Position numbers and translations under genes: made by a program. From Escherichia coli (GTDB taxonomy: Bacteria; Pseudomonadota; Gammaproteobacteria; Enterobacterales; Enterobacteriaceae), in the NCBI RefSeq assembly GCF_044324875.1, contig NZ_CP172185.1: a DNA stretch of 64,000 nucleotides; one strand, given 5' to 3'. This document shows positions 28,754 through 43,663 of this stretch, piece after piece. Numbering within the stretch: position 1 is the stretch's first letter; each line of letters starts with the position of its first letter. The notes under the pieces were generated by a model that made no database searches, had not been told where the DNA came from, and was given only the letters and a program-made list of their open reading frames with translations.

Positions 28754-30853
28754 TTAAACCATCGCGTTATCCATCTGCTTTTCAAATGCCTGACGAATTA
28801 ATCCCATCACATAAGGAAGCTCAGAAAGATCGCTGAAACCTACTTCAACATCGCCATTGCCCCAACGGCCTATATCTGTGACATCTTTAGCCATACATTT
28901 TGGGTCAACCAGTTCATGAAATGGCATATTTAGTGATAAACGTAAGCGACTTTTTTGCGGCACCACATCAACAAAATTCGTCTCCGCTTTGAAGGCAACA
29001 TAGAGCTTAAATATTTCTCGCGTAACCCCAGCGTCCAGCGCCATAACGGCATCAGAAAGGCTGTCAAAAAGTACGCGGATATGCGTACCTTCTTCAAGTT
29101 GTGGGAAATCAGCAAGGACATATCCCGTTCCTCGTTCAACGACAGTGCGATAACGAGCCAACACGTCTTCCGAAAGTTTGGGGATCGCCCAGACGTCTAT
29201 TGCCAGCTCGGCCAGACGTTCCGCTCTCTTTTGTATCGCTGCACGATCCCATATTTCACATTGCCCTAACCCCGTGTTCAGGCGTAATGGACTTTCCTTA
29301 AAGCCACCTTTTATATCTCGCTTCTTCGCAAATGGACGGTCGCTGTAGCTTGAGTTATAGCCAGTTAACGTTAAATTACCCAACGTATGGAGCCACTTTT
29401 TATGGATTCGCTTCCATTCCGGACCAAGGTCATCGCGCCACTTCGCCGATAAATTAGGGTTCTGCGGCATGATATGTTCAATCGTATAAGTGTCAACATA
29501 GGCCCGTTCTTTACGATCGTGGTTTTCAAATCTACGTAGCCAATAGCTGCGATTACGGAAGTTGTAGAGGTCGCGAGTTTTCAGTTCACGTTGAAATTCA
29601 TCATCATCCGGGAAACGACGGTAGGAAGGCAGTTCCAGCAAATGTGCCGCAATGCTCTCCAGATAACGCTCTTTATCCAGCACTTTGTAAAACGTGGCGA
29701 AGGTTTTAGTAAATGAGTTAGTGGGAATGGCACAGACTGCGCGCCGGAAGATATACGACTCAATTAAACGCGTGGCACTTAAAAAATCCGCGGCAGAAAG
29801 AATTCCCTGTTTATAGTCATGATAAAGCACCAACAGGAACGGCCAGGCAGCATCGACTTTCAGCTCGCGTAGATCCTGAAATGCCATCTTTAAGGTTTTA
29901 TCCTTTTCGCTATCCAGCGCCATCGCACAAAAATAGTCAGCAAACGTACGAATATCCGCAACCAGCGCCCCCATCCCGCGATCCATCACTCCTGGTTTTC
30001 GCGCATAGCGTTTAAAGGCTTCATAGACATCACCAATTCGCGGAATCTCACCTGTTTTTACCGTCAGATAATTACGCATAAAACTGTCGAAATAGTCAGT
30101 GTATCCCTTCTGACCAAACGCCAGCTCCATGGGCCGCGAGTAATCGTCGTACAGTTGGCTTTGATGTTCTGGCTCCAGCCCCATCAGAACATAGTTGCGA
30201 ACCAGATCCGCCTGACTCAGCGCTTTTCCTGTTGAGTTCATGCTTTCGAAGATTAGTTGCGGATTATCCTGACCGCGATTCAAGGCGACATCCACAATCA
30301 GCAGTTTGGAAAGTCCCTGACATAACGCGGTGAAATTGCCGTGGAGTTTGCCTATTTGCTCATGGAAAAACTCAAAATTCTCTTTCACGCGTAGAGAGCA
30401 ATTTTCTGCCAGCGGTTTTTGTCTAATCAATGCCAGCAGGCTTTCTCTGTCCGTTTGCGTGAGCAGTAACTTAAAACCACGCTCGCCCGATTCATACGGA
30501 TTGAGCAGATAATAGTTTCGTAATTTCATGGCGGAGAAACCATCCATCACCTCGTCATCGCCAAGATGTCTGGACAACGCTTCCAGCAATAACATCGCCG
30601 TTGTCAGGCGTTGCTGACCGTCAATCACCAGTAATGGCGAAATCCCCGAAACCTGATATATGCCCTGTTCGATATACACCACCGAGCCGATGAAATGCGC
30701 CGGGATATCATCACGCTGCCCGGCACGTATTACATCGTCCCAGAGCTGGCGGCACTGTTCCTCTGACCATGAATAAGTACGCTGATAAATGGGAATAACG
30801 AATTGCTGAGAGCGTTTTAGAAAATCGAGTAATCGGGCTTCGGTGGCTTTCAT
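28754..30853 (-). CDS. GmrSD-like type IV (modification-dependent) restriction endonuclease, DUF262 (ParB-like NTPase) + DUF1524 (His-Me finger nuclease)
   Basis: N-terminal DGQQR motif (LLVIDGQQRLTT), C-terminal HIMPQNP His-Me-type motif; 699 aa; AGGAG ribosome-binding site. Confidence 0.7.
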   Translation of the reverse strand: MKATEARLLDFLKRSQQFVIPIYQRTYSWSEEQCRQLWDDVIRAGQRDDIPAHFIGSVVYIEQGIYQVSGISPLLVIDGQQRLTTAMLLLEALSRHLGDDEVMDGFSAMKLRNYYLLNPYESGERGFKLLLTQTDRESLLALIRQKPLAENCSLRVKENFEFFHEQIGKLHGNFTALCQGLSKLLIVDVALNRGQDNPQLIFESMNSTGKALSQADLVRNYVLMGLEPEHQSQLYDDYSRPMELAFGQKGYTDYFDSFMRNYLTVKTGEIPRIGDVYEAFKRYARKPGVMDRGMGALVADIRTFADYFCAMALDSEKDKTLKMAFQDLRELKVDAAWPFLLVLYHDYKQGILSAADFLSATRLIESYIFRRAVCAIPTNSFTKTFATFYKVLDKERYLESIAAHLLELPSYRRFPDDDEFQRELKTRDLYNFRNRSYWLRRFENHDRKERAYVDTYTIEHIMPQNPNLSAKWRDDLGPEWKRIHKKWLHTLGNLTLTGYNSSYSDRPFAKKRDIKGGFKESPLRLNTGLGQCEIWDRAAIQKRAERLAELAIDVWAIPKLSEDVLARYRTVVERGTGYVLADFPQLEEGTHIRVLFDSLSDAVMALDAGVTREIFKLYVAFKAETNFVDVVPQKSRLRLSLNMPFHELVDPKCMAKDVTDIGRWGNGDVEVGFSDLSELPYVMGLIRQAFEKQMDNAMV

Positions 30854-31137
30854 GAATGACTCCTGTCAAATTGCGCTGGCAAACGGTGTCATTATGCTGC
30901 GAATAAAAAATAAAAGTTAGCGTCTTTGTTTCTGCAAAAATACCATTCCAGGATAAATCAAAATATATTAAGAAACACCTCAAAACGCATTCATTAGAAC
31001 AATTAATATTTTCAATTCATATTTATAACGCATTGAAAATGATCGTGTTTTTGATCATCACAGCAATAGTTTGATATAACAAAGCATTCACTTCACATTG
31101 AATATCTCCCTCTTTTTCAGGGCAAGGAATGCTTTTT

Positions 31138-33483
31138 ATGTCATCAACTAATTTCAGTCAGATTGCAGCCTTCCTGTGGTCTGTCGCCGACCTGTTACGC
31201 GGCGATTTTAAACAATCACAATATGGGCGAATTATTCTCCCTTTCACTCTTCTTCGTCGTCTGGAATGCGTACTCGAAACAACGAAAGACGCGGTCATTG
31301 CCGAGGCGCAAAAAGTAAAAGCCATGAAACTGCCGGAGGAAGCCCAGGAGAAAATGATCCTGCGGGCGACTAATGGCCTCACGTTCTTTAATGCCTCAGC
31401 GATGGATCTCAGCAAAATGGGGCAAAATGGCATACAGGACAACCTGGAAAACTACATCCAGTCGTTCTCTTCGGATGCCCGCGAAATTTTCGAACACTTC
31501 AAGTTCAGCGAGTTTGTCGGACAGCTGGCGGATGCGAACTTGCTGTTCAAAGTGGTGCAAATATTCGCTAAAGCAGATTTATACCCGGAGCACGTCACCA
31601 ACCACGATATGGGGCTGGTGTTTGAGGAGCTGATCCGCCGTTTTGCCGAGAGTTCAAACGAAACCGCCGGGGAGCACTTTACCCCGCGTGATATCGTCAA
31701 TCTGACCACCTCGCTGGTGTTTTTCGATGATGATGATGCGCTCAATAAAGACGGCATCATCCGCACCATTTACGATCCAACGGCAGGAACCGGCGGCTTT
31801 CTCTCCTCCGGCATGGAGTACGTCCATAAACAAAACCCCAATGCCGTGATGCGCGCGTTTGGTCAGGAGTTAAACCCGGAATCCTACGCCATCTGCAAAG
31901 CCGACATGCTGATTAAGGGCCAGGACGTCAGCCTTATCAAACTCGGCAATACCCTTTCCAACGATCAACTCCCCGCAGAAAAATTTGATTACATGCTTTC
32001 TAATCCACCTTTCGGCGTGGACTGGAAAAAGATAGAAACCGACATCAACAACGAGCACAAACTCAAAGGTGCTGATGGTCGCTTTGGCCCCGGCCTGCCC
32101 CGCGTCTCTGACGGTTCGTTGCTGTTTCTGCTGCACCTGATCAGCAAAATGCGCGATGCCAAAAGCGGTGGCGGGCGGATCGGCATCATTCTTAATGGTT
32201 CCCCATTATTTACCGGCGGCGCGGGCAGCGGTGAAAGCGAGATCCGCCGCTACATTCTGGAAGCGGATTTGCTGGAAGGCATTATCGCCCTGCCCACCGA
32301 CATGTTTTACAACACCGGTATCGCTACCTATGTTTGGGTGCTGTCCAACAAAAAAGCGCCAGAACGCAAAGGCAAAGTCCAGCTTATCGACGGCAGCAAC
32401 CTGTGCGGCAAGATGCGTAAATCGCTGGGGTCAAAACGCAATATTCTCGGAGACGAGGATATTGGTTTAATCACCCGCACGTTTGGCGATTTCGAACCCG
32501 TTGCCACCACTACGCTTGCGGCGTTAGGCCTGGAGAAAGCACCCGAACAAAAATCCAGCCGGGGACGCCAGCCCGCAACAACCAAAACCGAGGCGGCAAA
32601 AACTTTTGCCAGCAAAGTCTTTCACAGCACCGAGTTTGGCTATCGTCGCATCACCGTTGAGCGCCCGTTACGCCTGTCGGCTCAGATAAGTGATGACGCC
32701 ATTGCCACATTACGTTTTGCGCCGAAGCCGTTTAACGCTCCGATGGCGCAACTGTATGACGCCTTTGCTTTCCAGTGGCAGGACGGTCATTACGGCGACT
32801 TAACAGCGGTAGAAAGTGAAGCCCGCGCCATTCTTAAAGCCGATTTTAGCGAGCTGAAAGAGAAGCAAATTAAAGATCTGCTCGACAGCAAATTATGGCT
32901 GGCCCAGCGCGGGTTAATGGAAAAAGCGCGGCGTATTCAGGCGGCGATGGGTATGCAGGCGGGCGGCAAAGACACCGTTAGCAATGACTTTAATCAGTTC
33001 CAGTTGACGCTGAAAGAGGCGTTCAAAACCGCAGGCGTGAAGCTGGATGCGAAAGAGAACAAGCAGTTTATCGATGCTATCACCCGCAAAAACCCGGACG
33101 CCGAGCCGGTAGTCAGCAAGGTACTGAAAGAAGCGGCCCAACCGTTGTACGGCGCGTTTGAGTACCACGGAAAGGTTGTGGAGTTTGAGCCGGATGGCGA
33201 CCTGCGTGATAACGAGAATGTGCCGTTAAATCCGGCGGTATCTACCAGCGAGTTGATCGAGGGTTACTTCAAAGCAGAAGTATTGCCGCACGTCGCGGAT
33301 GCGTGGATTAACGCCGATAAGCGCGATGCGAAAGATGGGGATATCGGGATTGTGGGGTATGAAATTCCGTTTAATCGCCATTTTTATGTTTATCAACCGC
33401 CAAGGCCGCTGGAGGAGATTGATGCGGATCTGGATGCAGTAAGCGCTGAAATTATGAAACTGTTGCAGGAGGTACATTCCTGA
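31138..33483 (+). CDS. hsdM: Type I restriction-modification system methyltransferase subunit HsdM (unusually long, ~781 aa)
   Basis: N6-adenine MTase motifs ([10 protein letters not shown] motif I, NPPFG motif IV); canonical HsdM N- and C-termini; start placed at the ATG 9 nt downstream of AAGGAA. Confidence 0.9.
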
Positions 33484-34772
33484 TGGCAGGGTTAAATAAA
33501 TATCAGGCGTATCCGGAGTATAGGGATTCTGGGGTGGAGTGGATCGATGCAATCCCTTTTCATTGGGAAGTGCTACCAACATTTTCTCTATGTGAGGCAT
33601 CGACGAAGAAAAATATCGATGGAGCAGAAAACAATGTGCTCTCATTGAGTTATGGAAAAATTATTCCCAGAGATATAGAAACAAACTTCGGGCTTTTACC
33701 AGAGTCATTTAATACTTATCAAATCGTTGAAAATGGCGATATTATTTTAAGATTAACTGATCTACAAAATGATAAAAACAGTTTACGCGTAGGATTAGTC
33801 AAACAAAAAGGGATTATTACATCTGCATATTTAAAACTCAATTCACAAGGAAGTATGCTATCCGAATATTTATATCGCCTACTTCATTCATATGATACGA
33901 CTAAAGTTTTTTATGGCATGGGAGGAGGGCTGAGACAATCAATGAAATTTGAGGATTTCAGAAGATTGCCCTTACTGCTTCCATCGAAAAACGAACAGGG
34001 AAAAATAATTGATTTCCTCGACCACGAAACAGCAAAAATCGATAACCTGATCGAAAAACAACAACAACTTATTGAACTACTGAAAGAAAAACGTCAGGCA
34101 GTGATTAGCCATGCGGTGACCAAAGGGCTAAATCCTGATGTGCCGATGAAAGATTCTGGGGTTGAGTGGTTGGGTGAAGTTCCGAAACACTGGCACATAT
34201 GCAAGTTAAAATGGTTTGCTAATTTGAAAAGTGGTGATTTTATAACCAGCAATTCAATAGAACCAGAAGGAAACTATCCTGTTTATGGTGGAAATGGATT
34301 AAGAGGATATTATTCTCATTTTACACACAATGGTGAATATGTTCTTATTGGTAGACAAGGTGCTCTTTGCGGAAATATAAATTACGCAATTGGAAAATTT
34401 TGGGCTTCAGAACATGCTGTTGTTGTCACCCCAAACGAAAGAGCTGTTACAATATGGTTAGGAGAATTATTAAGAATAATGAACTTAAACCAATATTCAG
34501 TTTCTGCTGCACAACCGGGGCTTGCGGTTGAAAGAATTACTGATTTATATATTCCAATCCCACCATATCAAGAGCAAATAAATATCGGAACTTATATATC
34601 TAAATATATTTCTCTAGATAAAAAATTGATTGAGCATAGTACAGATAATATTGAACTCCTAAAAGAACGCCGCACCGCCCTTATCTCCGCCGCCGTCACC
34701 GGCAAAATCGACCTACGCAACTGGACCGCGCCCATCCCCGAAGCGGAAACACCCACGGAGGTCAGCGCATGA
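33483..34772 (+). CDS. hsdS: Type I R-M specificity subunit HsdS (two target-recognition domains)
   Basis: Duplicated conserved segments (DSGVEWIDAIPFHWEV / DSGVEWLGEVPKHWHI) flank two variable AT-rich TRDs; start overlaps the hsdM stop (TGATG). Confidence 0.9.
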   Translation: MAGLNKYQAYPEYRDSGVEWIDAIPFHWEVLPTFSLCEASTKKNIDGAENNVLSLSYGKIIPRDIETNFGLLPESFNTYQIVENGDIILRLTDLQNDKNSLRVGLVKQKGIITSAYLKLNSQGSMLSEYLYRLLHSYDTTKVFYGMGGGLRQSMKFEDFRRLPLLLPSKNEQGKIIDFLDHETAKIDNLIEKQQQLIELLKEKRQAVISHAVTKGLNPDVPMKDSGVEWLGEVPKHWHICKLKWFANLKSGDFITSNSIEPEGNYPVYGGNGLRGYYSHFTHNGEYVLIGRQGALCGNINYAIGKFWASEHAVVVTPNERAVTIWLGELLRIMNLNQYSVSAAQPGLAVERITDLYIPIPPYQEQINIGTYISKYISLDKKLIEHSTDNIELLKERRTALISAAVTGKIDLRNWTAPIPEAETPTEVSA

Positions 34773-37700
34773 GCAACGACATAACAAAAGAGATCAACCT
34801 GCAAAACGACATCATCGCGCAGATGGCAGAAAAAGGCTGGATTGTCGGCAAAGGTGACGGCTACGACCGGGAACGAGCACTATACGCACAGGATACCTTA
34901 AACTTCGTACAAACCACCCAACCGCAAGAGTGGGAAAAATTCGCCCGCGTTTACCCCAACGACACCGAGCGCCATTTCCTCGACGCACTGGTCGCGCAGC
35001 TTAAAAAAGCCGACAGCAACGCCACCGATATTCAGTCGCGCACCAGGGGTACGCTCGGCGTACTTCGCCACGGCCTGAAAATCCGCAATGCCCGTTTTTC
35101 GCTGTGCCAGTTTAAACCGGAACATAATCTCAACCCGGAAACGCTGGCGCGCTATCAGCAGAATATCTGCCGCATTGTGCCGGAACTGATCTACAGCCCT
35201 TATGCCTCAAATAGCGTCTTTGCAGAAACGGGCGTGAAAGCCAAAAAATGGCGCATCGACCTGGTGCTGTTTATCAACGGCCTGCCAATTGCCACGCTGG
35301 AGCTGAAATCCGAATTCAAACAGGCGGTGCAGAACGCCATTGCGCAGTATAAAAAAACCCGCCTGCCGAAAGATCCCGCTACCAATAAGCCCGAACCGCT
35401 GCTGACCTTCAAGCGCGGGGCGCTGGTGCATTTTGCCGTCAGCCAGTATGACGTTTATATGACCACCAAACTCGTGGGTGACAGCACCTTCTTCCTGCCG
35501 TTTAACAAAGGCACCAAAGATGGTGGTGCAGGCAATGAGATCCCCGAAGATACCCACCGCTACGCCACCGATTATCTGTGGAATGAAGTACTGCTGCCGG
35601 ACAACTTATTAAAAATCCTCGCCAGTTTTGTCCATTTGCAGATTGAAGAAAAAGAGGAGTGGAACGGGCTGAAAGCGAAGAAAGAGAGCCTGATTTTCCC
35701 GCGCTATCACCAGTGGGATGTAGTCAACAAACTGCTGGAGGCCGCGACGGTCGAAGGCACCGGCCATAAATACCTGATCCAGCACAGCGCAGGTTCCGGA
35801 AAGTCGAACTCCATTGCCTGGACCGCCCACCAGCTTTCTCGTCTGTACGACGCAAACGGGGAAAAACAGTTTCATTCTGTTATCGTGGTGACGGACCGCA
35901 CAGTGCTGGACGACCAGCTTCAGGACGCCATCTGGCAGTTCGAGCACGCCGACGGCGTGGTCGGGCGCATCAATAATAGAGAGGGCGATGGCTCTAAATC
36001 GGAAAAGCTCGCCAACGCGCTGGAAAACTCGCAACCGATTATTATTGTCACCATCCAGACGTTCCCGTTCGTATTGAAAGCTATCGAAAACAGTGTCAGC
36101 CTGAAGCAGCGTAAATATGCGGTGATTGCCGACGAAGCACACTCCTCGCAGAGCGGTTCTACCGCCCGTCAGCTTAAAGAAGTGCTGATGAGCGAAGAGA
36201 TGGATGATGACGTGGTACTGTCGTCAGAAGATATTCTGGATGCGACCATCGCTGCACGGAAAGGCAGCAGTAACCTGAACTACTACGCCTTTACCGCCAC
36301 GCCAAAATCCAAAACCCTGGAACTCTTTGGTCGCTGTCCGCGTCCCGATGAGCCGGCCTCAAAAACCAATAAACCTGAGGCCTTCCACGTCTACTCCATG
36401 CGCCAGGCAATCGAAGAAGGCTTTATCCTCGACGTGCTGAAAAACTACACCAACTACAAAGTGGCGTATCAGTTGCTGCAAAAGCTGGAAGACAAGGACC
36501 GCGAAGTCGACAGCAAAAAGGCAAAGATAAAGCTCAACCAATGGGTGACACTGCACGACCACAACATCTCGCAGAAGGTGAAGGTGATTGTGGAGCACTT
36601 CCGCAAACATGTGATGCACCTGCTTGGCGGCCAGGCTAAAGCGATGGTGGTCACCAGTTCACGCAAAGCCGCTGTGCGCTACAAGCTGGCGTTTGATAAA
36701 TACATTAGCGAGAACAATTACCAGAAAATCAGCGCGATGGTGGCATTTTCCGGGGAAGTTGAATTCCAGGAAGGCGACCATAACAGCCTGGCATTGTTAA
36801 AGCAGAAATTTACTGAAATAAACATGAACCCCGGCCTGAAAGGGCGGGATATGCGCAAAGCCTTCGACAGCGATGATTATCAGGTGATGTTGGTCGCCAA
36901 TAAATTCCAGACCGGTTTTGACCAGCCAAAGCTGTGCGCGATGTACGTGGATAAACCCCTCGGTGGCGTCGAGTGCGTGCAGACACTCTCCCGCCTGAAC
37001 CGCACCTATCCGGGCAAAGCGGAATCGGGCACTTTTGTCCTCGATTTTTATAATGATCCGGACGAGATCCTCGGCGCATTCCAGCCCTATTTCCAGACGG
37101 CGGAACTGACCGATGTCAGCGATCCGCAGCAGGTATTCGATCTGTTTGAAAAACTGCGCGCCACGCAGATTTTTCAGTGGCATGAAGTCGAGCAGTTCTG
37201 CGAGGCGTACTTCATCAAAAATAAATCGAATGCGGCGATCAGTAATATCTGTAAACCGGCGGTCGAACGCTGGAAAAAGCGTTATCTGATGGCAATAGAC
37301 GCCTATTTGACCGCCAAAGAGATGTTCGAGCGCACTAAAAAAACGGGCGATACGGTGTTAATCACCAATGCGGAAAACAGTTTTAAAGCCTGTAAGCAGG
37401 AGAAAGATCGTCTGGAGATTTTCAAGAAAGATCTCGGCAGCTTTGTTCGCTTTTATGAGTTTATGTCGCAAATCGTTGAGTACGATGACAAGGATCTGGA
37501 AAAGCTAAGCCTGTTTGCCCGTCATCTGCGTCCGCTGCTGCATGAGCAACGTCTGGAAGAGGATGAAATTGATCTCAGTAATGTGGAGATGAGTCACTAT
37601 CGTTTATCGAAAATCCATGAGCAAGATTTACGCTTACAGGAAGAAACGTCTGACTATACGCTGGATGCAAGTAATGATATTGGTACGGCAAAAGCGAAAG

Positions 37701-38032
37701 ATAAAAAAGAGGAGTTTTTATCGCAGGTGCTTTCTCGGATGAATGAATTATTCATTAGCGACCATTTGACCGACAAAGATATGATCAGCAATGCTTTTGC
37801 GGTGTATAACAAAATAACTGAAAATGAAAATGTTATGACACAAATTAAAAACAATCCGCCAGAACAAGCGATTCTTGGTGATTTCCTCCAGGCAGTTGAT
37901 AATGCTGTAATGGACAGTAATGACGCTCGGCAAGAATTTATGTTGCAATATTTATCCGATCCAGTTCGGGCAAAGGGCTTTGCTTATCTGATGTTTGATA
38001 TGCTCACGGGGAAAATTGCTTTGCCAACATAA
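34769..38032 (+). CDS. hsdR: Type I R-M restriction subunit HsdR (SF2 helicase/endonuclease)
   Basis: Walker A (SAGSGKSNS) and DEAH box (IADEAHSSQ); 1087 aa; ATGA overlap with the hsdS stop. Confidence 0.9.
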   Translation: MSNDITKEINLQNDIIAQMAEKGWIVGKGDGYDRERALYAQDTLNFVQTTQPQEWEKFARVYPNDTERHFLDALVAQLKKADSNATDIQSRTRGTLGVLRHGLKIRNARFSLCQFKPEHNLNPETLARYQQNICRIVPELIYSPYASNSVFAETGVKAKKWRIDLVLFINGLPIATLELKSEFKQAVQNAIAQYKKTRLPKDPATNKPEPLLTFKRGALVHFAVSQYDVYMTTKLVGDSTFFLPFNKGTKDGGAGNEIPEDTHRYATDYLWNEVLLPDNLLKILASFVHLQIEEKEEWNGLKAKKESLIFPRYHQWDVVNKLLEAATVEGTGHKYLIQHSAGSGKSNSIAWTAHQLSRLYDANGEKQFHSVIVVTDRTVLDDQLQDAIWQFEHADGVVGRINNREGDGSKSEKLANALENSQPIIIVTIQTFPFVLKAIENSVSLKQRKYAVIADEAHSSQSGSTARQLKEVLMSEEMDDDVVLSSEDILDATIAARKGSSNLNYYAFTATPKSKTLELFGRCPRPDEPASKTNKPEAFHVYSMRQAIEEGFILDVLKNYTNYKVAYQLLQKLEDKDREVDSKKAKIKLNQWVTLHDHNISQKVKVIVEHFRKHVMHLLGGQAKAMVVTSSRKAAVRYKLAFDKYISENNYQKISAMVAFSGEVEFQEGDHNSLALLKQKFTEINMNPGLKGRDMRKAFDSDDYQVMLVANKFQTGFDQPKLCAMYVDKPLGGVECVQTLSRLNRTYPGKAESGTFVLDFYNDPDEILGAFQPYFQTAELTDVSDPQQVFDLFEKLRATQIFQWHEVEQFCEAYFIKNKSNAAISNICKPAVERWKKRYLMAIDAYLTAKEMFERTKKTGDTVLITNAENSFKACKQEKDRLEIFKKDLGSFVRFYEFMSQIVEYDDKDLEKLSLFARHLRPLLHEQRLEEDEIDLSNVEMSHYRLSKIHEQDLRLQEETSDYTLDASNDIGTAKAKDKKEEFLSQVLSRMNELFISDHLTDKDMISNAFAVYNKITENENVMTQIKNNPPEQAILGDFLQAVDNAVMDSNDARQEFMLQYLSDPVRAKGFAYLMFDMLTGKIALPT

Positions 38033-38096
38033 AACACGTTGATAGCCGGGGTCGCACTTTCTACCCCGGCCATATTGTTTACAATAAGGAATAGCT

Positions 38097-38810
38097 ATGC
38101 TGAAGATGATTAAAGATTTTAAATTCAAAAAATACATTAAAAAATTACGTGAAGAAGGTTTGTTTTTTTATGTTTCTTTCGGTTTTATATTTACATTGTT
38201 AATGGAAGTTGATAATCAATTACCATACTATCTTCAACAAGACTTCTTCTTTTATACACTTATAGGATTTATGCCAATCAATATATTCTTTGTTTTGATT
38301 TGCACAAATGTATTTTTCAATGCCGCCCACACACTTATTTCACCTTATAAAGGTCAAAGAGTTGGTGAGAAATTTCTCTCTGAACTTGATAAAAGAACGC
38401 AACAAATTGGCTTTATTATTTCATTTATATGTTTTGGCATGACATTGTTTTGTGCTCTGGCGTGGTTGCTGTTTTTTGAGATGAATAATGAAAGTTACTA
38501 CGCAAAATATACATTAGATTTTTTGGCTGTTTTTATCATTATGATTATGTTTTCTTCAGCAGTTAATCCAGTCATGAGAAGAATATTCCAAAAAATGAAG
38601 GGATCGGACTCACATGGAAATTCAAAAATAATTCTTATAATTATAATCATTGTGTTATTGCTATTATTGCCAATTGCGTACATTATCAATAAAAATAAAA
38701 CAATTGAAATCAATATTAAGAAAGAAACTTATCAGCAAATAAAAGAAAAAACAAAGATGAAACCAGAAGATTATATCAAAAAATTGATTGCTGATATTAA
38801 ATTCAACTAA
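38097..38810 (+). CDS. Low-GC multi-pass membrane protein of unknown function (237 aa)
   Basis: Strongly AT-rich ORF with several hydrophobic segments and a Lys-rich C-terminus; AAGGAA ribosome-binding site; 64 bp downstream of hsdR. Confidence 0.55.
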   Translation: MLKMIKDFKFKKYIKKLREEGLFFYVSFGFIFTLLMEVDNQLPYYLQQDFFFYTLIGFMPINIFFVLICTNVFFNAAHTLISPYKGQRVGEKFLSELDKRTQQIGFIISFICFGMTLFCALAWLLFFEMNNESYYAKYTLDFLAVFIIMIMFSSAVNPVMRRIFQKMKGSDSHGNSKIILIIIIIVLLLLLPIAYIINKNKTIEINIKKETYQQIKEKTKMKPEDYIKKLIADIKFN

Positions 38811-39227: not shown

Positions 39228-40640
39228 ATGACGCGTTATCAACATCTGGCGACTCTGCTTGCCGAGCGGATTGAGCAGGGGCTGTATCGTCACGGGGAGA
39301 AATTGCCGTCGGTGCGCAGCTTAAGTCAGGAGCACGGCGTCAGCATCAGCACCGTGCAGCAGGCGTATCAGACGCTGGAGACGATGAAGCTCATCACCCC
39401 ACAGCCGCGTTCGGGTTATTTTGTCGCACAACGTAAAGCCCAGCCGCCAGTGCCGCCGATGACGCGTCCGGTGCAGCGCCCGGTGGAAATTACCCAGTGG
39501 GATCAGGTGCTGGATATGCTGGAGGCGCATAGCGACAGTTCCATTGTTCCGTTAAGTAAAAGCACGCCGGATGTCGAAACGCCCAGCCTGAAACCGCTGT
39601 GGCGGGAGCTAAGCCGGGTGGTGCAGCATAATCTGCAAACCGTTCTCGGTTATGACTTGTTAGCCGGTCAGCGAGTGTTGCGAGAGCAGATTGCCCGCCT
39701 GATGCTCGACAGCGGCTCGGTGGTCACTGCCGATGACATCATCATCACCAGCGGCTGCCATAACTCGATGTCGCTGGCGTTAATGGCGGTGTGTAAACCG
39801 GGCGATATTGTCGCGGTCGAATCCCCCTGTTATTACGGTTCGATGCAGATGCTGCGTGGCATGGGCGTGAAAGTGATTGAAATCCCAACCGATCCAGAAA
39901 CAGGCATCAGCGTTGAAGCGCTGGAACTGGCGCTGGAACAGTGGCCGATTAAAGGCATCATTCTGGTGCCAAACTGTAATAATCCGCTGGGATTTATTAT
40001 GCCGGACGCGCGCAAACGGGCCGTTCTCTCTCTCGCTCAGCGTCATGATATTGTGATTTTTGAAGATGATGTCTACGGCGAACTGGCAACGGAGTATCCG
40101 CGCCCGCGGACCATTCATTCCTGGGATATCGACGGGCGAGTGCTGTTGTGCAGCTCATTCAGTAAAAGTATTGCACCTGGCCTGCGCGTGGGTTGGGTCG
40201 CACCGGGGCGTTATCACGATAAACTGATGCATATGAAATACGCCATCAGCAGCTTTAATGTACCGTCCACGCAAATGGCGGCGGCAACGTTTGTGCTGGA
40301 AGGTCACTATCATCGCCATATCCGGCGGATGCGGCAGATCTATCAGCGCAATTTGGCGCTTTATACCTGCTGGATACGGGAATATTTTCCCTGCGAAATC
40401 TGCATTACGCGCCCGAAAGGCGGATTTTTACTGTGGATCGAATTGCCTGAACAGGTCGATATGGTCTGCGTCGCACGGCAGCTATACCGCATGAAAATCC
40501 AGGTGGCGGCAGGCTCGATTTTCTCAGCTTCCGGCAAATACCGTAATTGTCTGCGCATCAACTGCGCTTTGCCGCTCAGCGAAACCTATCGCGAAGCACT
40601 GAAGCAAATTGGCGAAGCCGTGTATCGGGCAATGGAATGA
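39228..40640 (+). CDS. yjiR: MocR-type regulator (GntR HTH fused to PLP aminotransferase-like domain)
   Basis: 470-aa ORF with N-terminal GntR wHTH and aminotransferase class I/II-like C-terminal domain. Confidence 0.85.
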   Translation: MTRYQHLATLLAERIEQGLYRHGEKLPSVRSLSQEHGVSISTVQQAYQTLETMKLITPQPRSGYFVAQRKAQPPVPPMTRPVQRPVEITQWDQVLDMLEAHSDSSIVPLSKSTPDVETPSLKPLWRELSRVVQHNLQTVLGYDLLAGQRVLREQIARLMLDSGSVVTADDIIITSGCHNSMSLALMAVCKPGDIVAVESPCYYGSMQMLRGMGVKVIEIPTDPETGISVEALELALEQWPIKGIILVPNCNNPLGFIMPDARKRAVLSLAQRHDIVIFEDDVYGELATEYPRPRTIHSWDIDGRVLLCSSFSKSIAPGLRVGWVAPGRYHDKLMHMKYAISSFNVPSTQMAAATFVLEGHYHRHIRRMRQIYQRNLALYTCWIREYFPCEICITRPKGGFLLWIELPEQVDMVCVARQLYRMKIQVAAGSIFSASGKYRNCLRINCALPLSETYREALKQIGEAVYRAME

Positions 40641-40754: not shown

Positions 40755-40860
40755 CATGCCGGATGCCATGTGAACGCCTTACCAGGTCTACAAAATTTTT
40801 AAAGTTCAATATATTTAATGGGTTATGTAGACCTGATAAGCGTAGCACATCAGGCAGTTT
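40755..40860. repeat. REP/RIP-like inverted palindromic element between yjiR and the rpnD pseudogene
   Basis: gccggatgccatgtgaacgccttaccaggtctac ... gtagacctgataagcgtagcacatcaggc inverted pair. Confidence 0.5.
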
Positions 40861-40882: not shown

Positions 40883-41964
40883 TTAGTACTCGATCCATGG
40901 ATCGCGCTTGCTTTCAGGCAAGGGCTGATCTAATGCCTGCATTTGCTCTGCCGAAAGTCCGGTATATCGTTGTATCCATTCAGGATCCGCCCCATTCTGC
41001 AACAACAATCGGAGGAGGCTCCGTTCCCCTTCTACTTTCCCTTCTTTCCTCCCCCTCTCCCTTCCCAACAGCCATCCATCATTATGAATTCGCTCTGCAA
41101 TCGTCATTATTCGCTCCCTTTGTTGTGGCATTCGACTGGTTAGTTCGCTGATAAACTCTTTAAAACGCGCTTCATCGCCAGTCAGTAAAATGTAATTTAA
41201 CAGCGCAGTTATCTGGCTGTCATTAGTACACTCTGTAACCAGTAATACTACCAGTTGGTCGATAAGCCCCATCAGATCGCGCTGGCGAATATGCTTTTGG
41301 ATCAACTCCAACAGGGCGACTCTGCGGTGCTGCACAATCTCGTCGTCTGGCACGACAGTGATATCCACCAGCGGGAACGCGGCGGTATATACTCGTCATA
41401 CTTCAAGTTGCATGTGCTGCGACTGCGTTCATTCACCCCAGTCACTTACTTTTGTAAGCTCCTGGGGATTCACTCACTTGTCGCCTTCCTGCAACTTGAA
41501 TTATTTAGAGTATAAAGCTTCCGTGCGGTGGTCGGGTCAGCAAATTCGTCCAGCCAGCACAGGGACCAGGGGTAAGGACTACGGCTACCGTGATAAAACA
41601 GCATCGGGATGACCAGCGGTAGCGGCCGGCGTTTATCATGCTCGATATGGCGCTGCATCACCGCCATGGAATATCGCATCAGGCGAAAGGCCATATGGAT
41701 ATCCTCGCGGCTCTGATGTTCAATCACTACGTAAATATAACCATCACCTTCACGGGTCTTTACCGACCACAGAATATCAGAGTGTAGCGCCCGCAATTTT
41801 TCATCGACAAAGCTGGCGGATTCCAGTTTTAAGCTGTCGAGATCGCACAATTCACGTAAATCTATTGGTAAGTGGATCTCCATAAAATCCCGCGCGGTGT
41901 CAGGGTGGGTGAGAAAGGATTTAAATAATGCGTCATGCGGCGTACTGGTCGTGAAGTTTGTCAT
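40883..41964 (-). pseudogene. rpnD: Rpn-family (YhgA-like, PD-(D/E)XK) recombination-promoting nuclease gene disrupted by a frameshift
   Basis: N-terminal part (41470..41964) and C-terminal part (40883..41368 and its upstream in-frame extension) lie in different frames on the same strand; matches the yjiP/yjiQ split in K-12. Confidence 0.75.
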
Positions 41965-42430
41965 GGCGATCCGTCACCTGTTGATAAGATGGCCCGACTT
42001 TAGCGACTAACAAAACCATTCTCACCCGGCAATTTCCCGTTCCCCGAGGCGCTTTCCAGGCTATTTTTGTTCTTCTGCAAACGATACATTTTTCCGGAAA
42101 CAGGCTCGCGTTTTACATGTCCTGTACCCGGCAGATATTCCTCTTTCCACCGCGCTCTTTTGATTAACCGCAAATTTTAATTACACTTAAGGTGTATATT
42201 TTCTATGCAACCCATCAATTCAAGAGGTGTAATGTGCTGATGACTATTTGTAATCGTTATACATTCTGACCAGAACTCAGAAGGTATTTCTCTGTCTGTA
42301 TAAGCACAGGCAGTGTGGTTGATTACATGAAATTCAGTACATTTGTCCTTCTCGCCTGCCTTTCGTCATTACCGACGGTATTGAATTTCGTTTTCCCCAT
42401 TGGGGTTCTCCGGACAAGGAGTTGTTTGTT

Positions 42431-43663
42431 ATGCCACGTTTTTTTGCCCGCCATGCCGCTACGCTGTTTTTCCCGATGGCGTTGATTTTGTATGACTTTG
42501 CCGCGTACCTGTCGACGGATCTGATCCAGCCAGGGATCATTAATGTGGTCCGTGATTTTAATGCCGATGTCAGTCTGGCCCCTGCTGCCGTCAGTCTCTA
42601 TCTTGCTGGCGGTATGGCGTTACAGTGGCTGCTGGGGCCGCTTTCCGACAGAATTGGCCGCAGGCCGGTGCTGATTACCGGGGCGCTAATTTTTACCCTT
42701 GCCTGCGCCGCAACAATGTTCACCACGTCAATGACACAATTTCTTATCGCGCGTGCAATTCAGGGCACCAGTATCTGTTTTATTGCCACCGTTGGTTATG
42801 TCACGGTGCAGGAGGCGTTCGGACAGACAAAAGGAATTAAGTTGATGGCGATTATCACCTCCATCGTACTGATTGCGCCGATTATCGGCCCGCTTTCCGG
42901 CGCAGCTCTGATGCACTTTATGCACTGGAAAGTCCTTTTTGCCATCATTGCGGTTATGGGTTTTATCTCATTTGTTGGCTTACTGCTGGCGATGCCAGAG
43001 ACGGTGAAGCGCGGCGCGGTTCCGTTTAGCGCCAAAAGCGTCTTGCGCGATTTTCGTAATGTCTTTTGCAATCGGCTGTTCCTCTTTGGCGCAGCAACCA
43101 TCTCTTTAAGCTATATCCCGATGATGAGCTGGGTGGCTGTCTCGCCGGTGATCCTTATCGATGCAGGCGGCTTAACAACTTCGCAGTTCGCCTGGACACA
43201 GGTTCCGGTGTTCGGCGCGGTGATTGTCGCGAATGCCATCGTGGCGCGTTTCGTTAAAGATCCAACCGAACCGCGATTTATCTGGCGTGCCGTCCCCATT
43301 CAACTGGTCGGCCTCGCGCTGTTGATTATCGGCAATCTGCTGTCGCCGCACGTCTGGCTGTGGTCGGTGCTGGGCACCAGTCTGTATGCTTTCGGGATTG
43401 GTTTGATTTTCCCGACCTTATTCCGCTTTACGCTGTTTTCCAATAACTTACCGAAAGGGACCATCTCCGCATCGCTAAATATGGTGATCCTGATGGTGAT
43501 GTCTGTCTCGGTCGAAATCGGCCGCTGGCTGTGGTTTAACGGCGGTCGCTTGCAGTTTCATCTGTTAGCCGTTGTGGCAGGCGTTATCGTCGTTTTCACC
43601 CTGGCCGGATTGCTTAATCGCGTGCGCCAACATCAGGCTGCCGAGCTGGCGGAGGAGCGGTGA
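42431..43663 (+). CDS. mdtM: MFS multidrug efflux transporter MdtM
   Basis: 410-aa 12-TM MFS protein from [14 protein letters not shown]. Confidence 0.85.

Follow-up and report, generated by a model that had tools for sequence, protein, structure and literature searches.

An ERIC element interrupts the long form of rpnD in Escherichia coli and leaves the reading frame of its candidate intragenic antitoxin intact

On the minus strand of the window, that is, the whole stretch of 64,000 nucleotides of E. coli DNA that was analysed (contig NZ_CP172185.1), the open reading frame listing contains two neighboring ORFs of 164 and 161 aa (Table 1). The Pfam profile PF04754 (Transposase_31, YhgA-like) matches both of them, the former with profile positions 1-144 (E 3e-65) and the latter with positions 150-202 (E 1.8e-11), and therefore the two ORFs are the two halves of a single gene of the Rpn family. 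The split gene is flanked by yjiR and mdtM, and the order mdtM - Rpn-family gene - yjiR - yjiS is also found in annotated E. coli genomes (RefSeq, four genomes). This conserved synteny identifies the split gene as the rpnD (yjiP/yjiQ) locus itself.

The rpnD locus adjoins a type I restriction-modification/GmrSD region and lies 3 kb from the hsd region. Upstream of yjiS/yjiR lies a variable defence island of the kind known as an "immigration control region", which consists of a hypothetical gene, a GmrSD-like gene and the M, S and R genes of a type I restriction-modification system. Over 24 kb, no complete E. coli genome is more than about 97.5% identical to the window. This low value raised the possibility that the DNA came from another species, which was rejected in view of the NCBI records with the exact truncated rpnD product, which are assigned to E. 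coli. A REP-like inverted repeat with 18-nt arms that are 89% complementary is present in the intergenic region between yjiR and rpnD, and in Rfam it matches the ES036/CssrF sRNA below the threshold (32.6 bits vs. a gathering score of 37.6). The intergenic region between mdtM and rpnD has an 11-bp indel at about position 42347 in comparison with the E. coli alleles examined and with the metagenome scaffold L016, which has the same ERIC allele as the window.

The nature of the interruption was resolved by a four-way alignment of the window, the intact allele of AR13438 (WP_000181180.1, 318 aa), K-12, and the split allele of CP55_Sichuan, in which the window and CP55 share one clean block of 125 bp that AR13438 and K-12 lack. 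In silico deletion of positions 41390-41514 restored an ORF of 957 bp without any further lesion, and the encoded protein of 318 aa shares 96% identity with WP_000181180.1. The insertion is located in codon 151 of rpnD, inside the PF04754 domain, and the gain of 125 nt places the two halves in frames that are +2 apart. The reconstructed protein matches PF04754 over profile positions 1-202 with 288 bits, above the curated cut-off, and TIGR01784 with 167 bits (cut-off 52). Its translation contains the PDDE motif and all of the catalytic residues D11, D63, E82, Q84 and R94 (in RpnA numbering), which are needed in RpnA (Kingston 2017, PMC5350276). A search for the exact reconstructed 318-aa protein in a collection of 15 billion proteins gave no match. 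An alternative view of the 125 bp, as ancestral coding sequence, is contradicted by their absence from intact alleles and by copies at other loci.

An earlier note on this DNA had described a YhgA/Rpn-family PD-(D/E)XK gene on the minus strand whose halves are out of frame with each other, and the PF04754 matches to both ORFs agree with that description. It had placed the break at around 41370-41470, which overlaps the true break at 41388-41514 and misses its exact position, and it had proposed a frameshift indel as the cause, in place of which the alignments revealed a clean net insertion of 125 bp by a 127-bp ERIC element.

Table 1. Coordinates of the features at and around the split rpnD gene
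Feature	Position in the window	Strand	Basis or remark
GmrSD-like gene, type I restriction-modification genes, hypothetical gene	28754-38810		
yjiR	39228-40640	+	Flanking gene
REP-like inverted repeat	40778-40840		yjiR-rpnD intergenic region
161-aa ORF	40883-41368	-	ORF listing
rpnD codons 152-318 and stop (rest of the Transposase_31 domain, variable C-terminal tail)	40883-41387	-	Pfam PF04754 150-202; reconstruction
Candidate RpnD_S intragenic antitoxin ORF, 74 aa	40883-41107	-	ATG 41107-41105; sequence and K-12 analogy
Shine-Dalgarno sequence AGGGAG	41114-41119		6 nt before the ATG at 41107
Sigma-70-like site ATGACA-18-TAAATT, extended TG; candidate RpnD_S promoter	41194-41223	-	Consensus scan only
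84-aa ORF	41358-41612	+	
ERIC/IRU/RU-1 miniature inverted-repeat element, 127 bp	41388-41514	+ (published consensus orientation)	Alignments, consensus match
Inverted-repeat arms of ERIC, 25 nt, imperfect	41388-41412 and 41490-41514		
Truncated product ORF, 164 aa	41470-41964	-	ORF listing, reconstruction; WP_409406296.1
Stop codon of the N-terminal ORF	41470-41472		Within the inserted element
rpnD codons 1-150 (PD-(D/E)XK nuclease core)	41515-41964	-	Pfam PF04754; alignment to WP_000181180.1
mdtM	42422-43663	+	Flanking gene

ERIC, also named IRU or RU-1, is reportedly a 127-bp MITE of enterobacteria, in work attributed to Sharples and Lloyd in 1990, Hulton in 1991, and Wilson and Sharp in 2006. 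The core motif of ERIC was found in the inserted block with one mismatch, while 100 shuffled sequences gave 0 matches. The inserted block could be aligned end to end with copies at four unrelated intergenic places (yeiS-preT, yafP-rtcB, ppa-chpB, and an island of strain 06-00048), and the shared unit is exactly 127 bp long and bounded by TATAC...GTATA. Without gaps it is identical to the published E. coli RU-1 consensus at 110 of 127 positions and to the Salmonella SeRU-1 consensus at 117/127 (PMC2759123), a range of 87-92% over both. The ends of the element, each of which has a terminal TA, form a perfect 7-bp inverted repeat (TATACTC/GAGTATA), and comparison of the empty site GCTT-TA-TACCGC with the filled site GCTT-[TA...127 bp...TA]-TACCGC shows that TA was duplicated, for a net gain of 125 bp; both TA termini and TA duplication have been described for the ERIC/IRU family (PMC2759123, PMC2229807). 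As RNA, it is predicted to fold into a hairpin of -56.4 kcal/mol, compared with -25.4 +/- 3 for shuffled sequences (z about -10.4).

In its length of 127 bp, its 7-bp terminal repeats with TA, its stable hairpin and its dispersed copies, the inserted block resembles the ERIC MITE, for which no mobilising transposase is known (Delihas 2007, PMC2759123). However, a typical ERIC is intergenic and the published intragenic copies are mostly in-frame fusions at the ends of genes, whereas the copy in rpnD splits a conserved protein domain in the middle and abolishes the reading frame. The RUP and Correia (NEMIS) MITEs are likewise small, non-autonomous and TA-targeting elements that disrupt a nuclease- or transposase-related gene, but they belong to a different element family and host, and ERIC lacks a known mobilising transposase. 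A 125-bp query found ERIC copies at several unrelated sites in almost all E. coli genomes, with a median of 4 per genome, and these few copies are mostly fixed at orthologous sites. Rfam contains no ERIC family, and only sub-threshold matches (V_AS5, isrH) were obtained from it; one of these, RF02818 (Vibrio RNA AS5), spans ERIC from end to end (41392-41515, minus strand) with 49.5 bits, under the gathering score, and the family may have been built on an ERIC-like repeat. The 84-aa ORF on the plus strand corresponds to an open frame already known from the reverse strand of ERIC (11 residues, not spelled out here, and then ...NLNYLEY), which runs into antisense rpnD, and it is very likely not a gene.

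The consequences for the long form of the protein, RpnD_L, can be read from the junction. The 164-aa product agrees with the intact protein in residues 1-152 and then continues with 12 residues encoded by ERIC; the translation across the junction, a stretch of 16 residues, is followed by a TGA inside ERIC. ERIC at the TA in codon 151 thus adds 125 nt, shifts the frame and leads to termination after 12 foreign codons, and RpnD_L, the nuclease or toxin form, can therefore be made only as a 164-aa fragment. This fragment retains the PD-(D/E)XK catalytic core and has lost the rest of the Transposase_31 domain with PDDE, as well as the C-terminal tail for oligomerisation. The residues D11, D63, E82, Q84 and R94 are located in the N-terminal fragment and PDDE (163-166) in the C-terminal fragment, so no single product has all of them. 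The 164-aa fragment is presumably non-functional, or at least non-toxic, although all of these catalytic residues are still present in it. The exact 164-aa product exists in the database as WP_409406296.1 [Escherichia coli] and occurs on 10 contigs. The very stable hairpin that ERIC would form in the transcript might, in addition, affect the fate of the mRNA.

The situation is different for the short form, RpnD_S. The Rpn proteins form toxin-antitoxin modules, in which RpnS is the antitoxin against the long form, and RpnS contains variable 4-aa repeats that start 8-20 residues past the Met (Zhong et al. 2023, PMC10400941). In K-12, RpnS is produced from each of the five rpn genes, and also from rpnD with its amber codon, by means of an internal promoter and an internal start in the same frame (PMC10400941 and a Ribo-RET study); for RpnD_S, use of the internal start has been published for K-12 only. 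In the window, a candidate RpnD_S ORF of 74 aa is preceded by a Shine-Dalgarno sequence, and K-12 has the same start context. Its 4-aa repeats (16 residues of them, not spelled out here) begin at residue 15, and the length differences from K-12 (12 aa) and from TW10598 (4 aa) are situated exactly at the repeat stretch. At the DNA level (positions 41038-41073), the K-12 and TW10598 alleles differ by 36 bp and 12 bp, respectively, in blocks that keep the frame and reflect the repeat variation known from RpnS proteins. The degenerate 12-bp (4-aa) repeats escaped detection by Tandem Repeats Finder. The sigma-70-like site lies 165 bp downstream of ERIC and its sequence is conserved in K-12; three such sites were found in the region, compared with 2.7 expected from shuffled sequences.

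The RpnD_S ORF, the Shine-Dalgarno sequence and the promoter-like site are all downstream of ERIC and intact, and alleles of the CP55, E4385 and L020 types have likewise kept the ORF with its Shine-Dalgarno sequence; TW10598 without ERIC can be reconstructed to an intact ORF of 314 aa. The 74-aa ORF matches the crystal structure of RpnA_S (7th0_A) weakly (E 0.01, 19.6 bits). Pfam found no family on the 74-aa ORF, and on the 156-aa C-terminal fragment PF27070 (HTH_Rpn_C) is recorded as "weak". The top PDB matches of the 74-aa ORF were spurious, ankyrin-like hits to the stretch LLLQNGADP and were discarded. By analogy with K-12, RpnD_S is probably still produced from the ERIC allele, and the locus would then consist of an orphan antitoxin gene and the remnant of a dead toxin gene. 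Such an arrangement resembles the stand-alone rpnSs genes, for example ypaA (PMC10400941), which likewise have a small C-terminal ORF without a functional long form, their own Shine-Dalgarno sequence and ATG, and 4-aa repeats. However, rpnSs genes of the ypaA type derive from the duplication of a small gene, whereas the stand-alone state in the window would result from a MITE that knocked out the toxin part, and the antitoxin role remains putative.

A disrupted rpnD is also present in K-12, and the earlier note had regarded the split gene as a mirror of yjiP/yjiQ. This is appropriate for the locus: it is the same gene at the same position (mdtM-rpnD-yjiR), and in both cases the long form is interrupted and the RpnD_S ORF is kept. 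The lesions, however, differ. According to the alignment, K-12 rpnD has an in-frame amber codon (CAG>TAG) at codon 104 and is free of ERIC, whereas the lesion in the window is the 127-bp ERIC at codon 151. In addition, the RpnS region of K-12 is 12 aa shorter, with fewer of the 4-aa repeats, and its extreme C-terminus differs from that of the window. The two pseudogenes are thus independent, and therefore the long form of rpnD has been lost at least two times by different routes. K-12 RpnD, the gene for which contains the amber codon 104, was nevertheless reported to be active upon overexpression, in a study that does not mention the stop codon (Kingston 2017, PMC5350276).

The left rpnD/ERIC junction was found in 33 of 5,426 complete E. 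coli genomes (about 0.6%), and the ERIC-split rpnD is a rare, naturally occurring polymorphism. The exact rpnD/ERIC junction had no match in a collection of species-representative genomes. The same element, identical at 127/127 positions and in the same site and orientation, is present on at least five rpnD backbones, namely the window type, CP55/STEC1587, TW10598 (the N half of which is K-12-like), L020/L021, and Escherichia sp. E4385. The last of these belongs to a cryptic clade, and its neighboring genes are only 75-94% identical to those of the window; mdtM is missing at its locus, and yjiN directly adjoins the ERIC-split rpnD. Pairwise, the five backbones differ at 16-31 of 450 positions in the N half, at 14-39 of 505 positions in the C half and at none of the 127 positions of ERIC, which corresponds to a flank divergence of 3-6%. 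The closest ERIC-less allele (98.5% over 957 bp) is nearer to the window than any other ERIC-bearing allele. ERIC is the sole lesion on every backbone, with the exception of the assembly L019 (E4385-type), in which the N half contains an additional 1-bp frameshift and the C fragment is unchanged. Between the N halves of the window and CP55 there are 22 synonymous differences and 1 non-synonymous difference (dS 0.26, dN/dS 0.011), and this synonymous excess implies that the divergence of the flanks arose under selection, before the insertion. More generally, rpnD alleles are unusually diverged for one species (N-half dS 0.18-0.26, dN/dS 0.01-0.05), and the locus looks mosaic.

Several explanations other than the inactivation of one gene by one insertion have to be weighed. 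The earlier note had considered a sequencing or assembly error, by which an indel in a homopolymer would create an artificial frameshift in an intact gene. Such an error would be expected to change 1-2 nt, whereas the lesion is a structured insertion of 125 bp that is present and identical in the 33 complete genomes and also occurs in five independent NCBI draft assemblies, which share 99.97-100% identity with the window along 3.5-6.5 kb, and the probability of an artefact is therefore negligible. It is also very improbable that rpnD has become a functional split gene, in which the N-terminal nuclease fragment reassembles with, or acts apart from, a C-terminal fragment that is translated on its own (for example from a GTG at 41368). 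This would fit with the lack of further lesions in both halves, the low dN/dS between the N halves of the alleles, and the C-terminal protein of 156-162 aa that gene predictors have called in several assemblies. However, the low dN/dS is explained by divergence that preceded the insertion and was brought in by recombination, the ERIC-bearing L019 already has its N half frameshifted, the insertion cuts within the Transposase_31 domain, and no evidence of a ribosome binding site was found for the GTG start. The RefSeq annotation treats the pieces of rpnD as pseudogene fragments in CP55_Sichuan and TW10598, whereas in STEC1587 it flags only the C-terminal piece as pseudo and lists the 164-aa N-terminal ORF as the protein WP_001379452.1.

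More difficult is the question of whether the element entered rpnD once or several times. Several lineages could each have received, at this one TA of rpnD, an independent and site-specific insertion of the same ERIC master copy. This would explain an identical element in the same site and orientation on at least five diverged backbones, including cryptic-clade Escherichia, and as the sole lesion on each backbone except that of L019. The pattern of the flanks points in the same direction: all four gametes with the presence or absence of ERIC are seen already at SNPs that lie 3 bp away on the right side and 18-25 bp away on the left side. Four gametes within 3 bp are unusually tight for homologous recombination and leave room for recurrence at the same site. 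A potential relative of the rpnD copy also exists. The only other 100%-identical ERIC copy in the 5,426 genomes is located at an unrelated locus of E. coli 06-00048 (NZ_CP015229.1, 345754-345878), in an island near ykgR that also contains the remnant of an integrase and a gene for an AbiEii toxin, and it may be a sibling or the source of the ERIC in rpnD. Furthermore, the left flank of the yeiS-preT copy is partly similar to the rpnD target. Recurrent insertion would imply that ERIC is mobile at present and has a strong target preference.

Nevertheless, we regard recurrent insertion as unlikely, and it is most likely that the ERIC allele arose once and was then moved between rpnD backbones by homologous recombination. 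A single origin is favored because ERIC is identical at 127/127 positions and is linked to a marker, 41362-A, which is located 26 bp to the right of ERIC and is shared by 4/5 ERIC-bearing and 0/4 ERIC-less alleles, suggesting identity by descent. In view of this linked marker, the identical ERIC on diverged flanks was set aside as a proof of independent insertion. No ERIC-less allele in the 5,426 genomes is more than 98.3% identical to the 233-bp empty site of the window, and thus none is identical to its flanks, as would have spoken for independent insertion; this also suggests identity by descent. The low number of ERIC copies in E. coli, their mostly orthologous sites and the lack of a known transposase that could mobilise them likewise argue against recurrent insertion. 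The hsd neighborhood is a zone of high effective recombination, and this, too, weighs against recurrence: repeated recombination near this region would have replaced the flanks around one ancestral insertion, and the large heterology could have made conversion tracts stop at the edge of ERIC.

Thus, with a probability of about 0.9, the long form of rpnD has been inactivated by a canonical 127-bp ERIC at the TA of codon 151, RpnD_S is probably still made, and the insertion most likely had a single origin and was spread by recombination. The event is of an ordinary type, a MITE that knocks out a toxic defence gene, and it represents a new allele of a gene known to be prone to pseudogenization; repeated loss of the long form is common for toxic defence genes. 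The intragenic location of ERIC with a clean empty site, together with its odd distribution over diverged alleles, makes it a modest curiosity. A more far-reaching interpretation is speculative and, in our opinion, rather improbable: ERIC could be a selectively favored switch that removes the self-toxic RpnD_L and keeps an orphan RpnD_S, or it could still be mobile and re-target this TA. A favored switch would explain the occurrence on at least five backbones, the crossing into a cryptic Escherichia clade and the fact that ERIC is almost always the sole lesion.

At the level of annotation, the split of rpnD is to be corrected to the insertion of a mobile element, in place of a frameshift or an error. 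The alleles also provide a clean pair of filled and empty sites for ERIC, an element without a known mobilising enzyme. Furthermore, the ERIC allele is a natural variant in which the Rpn toxin would have been removed and the intragenic antitoxin left behind, and it could be used to probe the role of an orphan RpnS.
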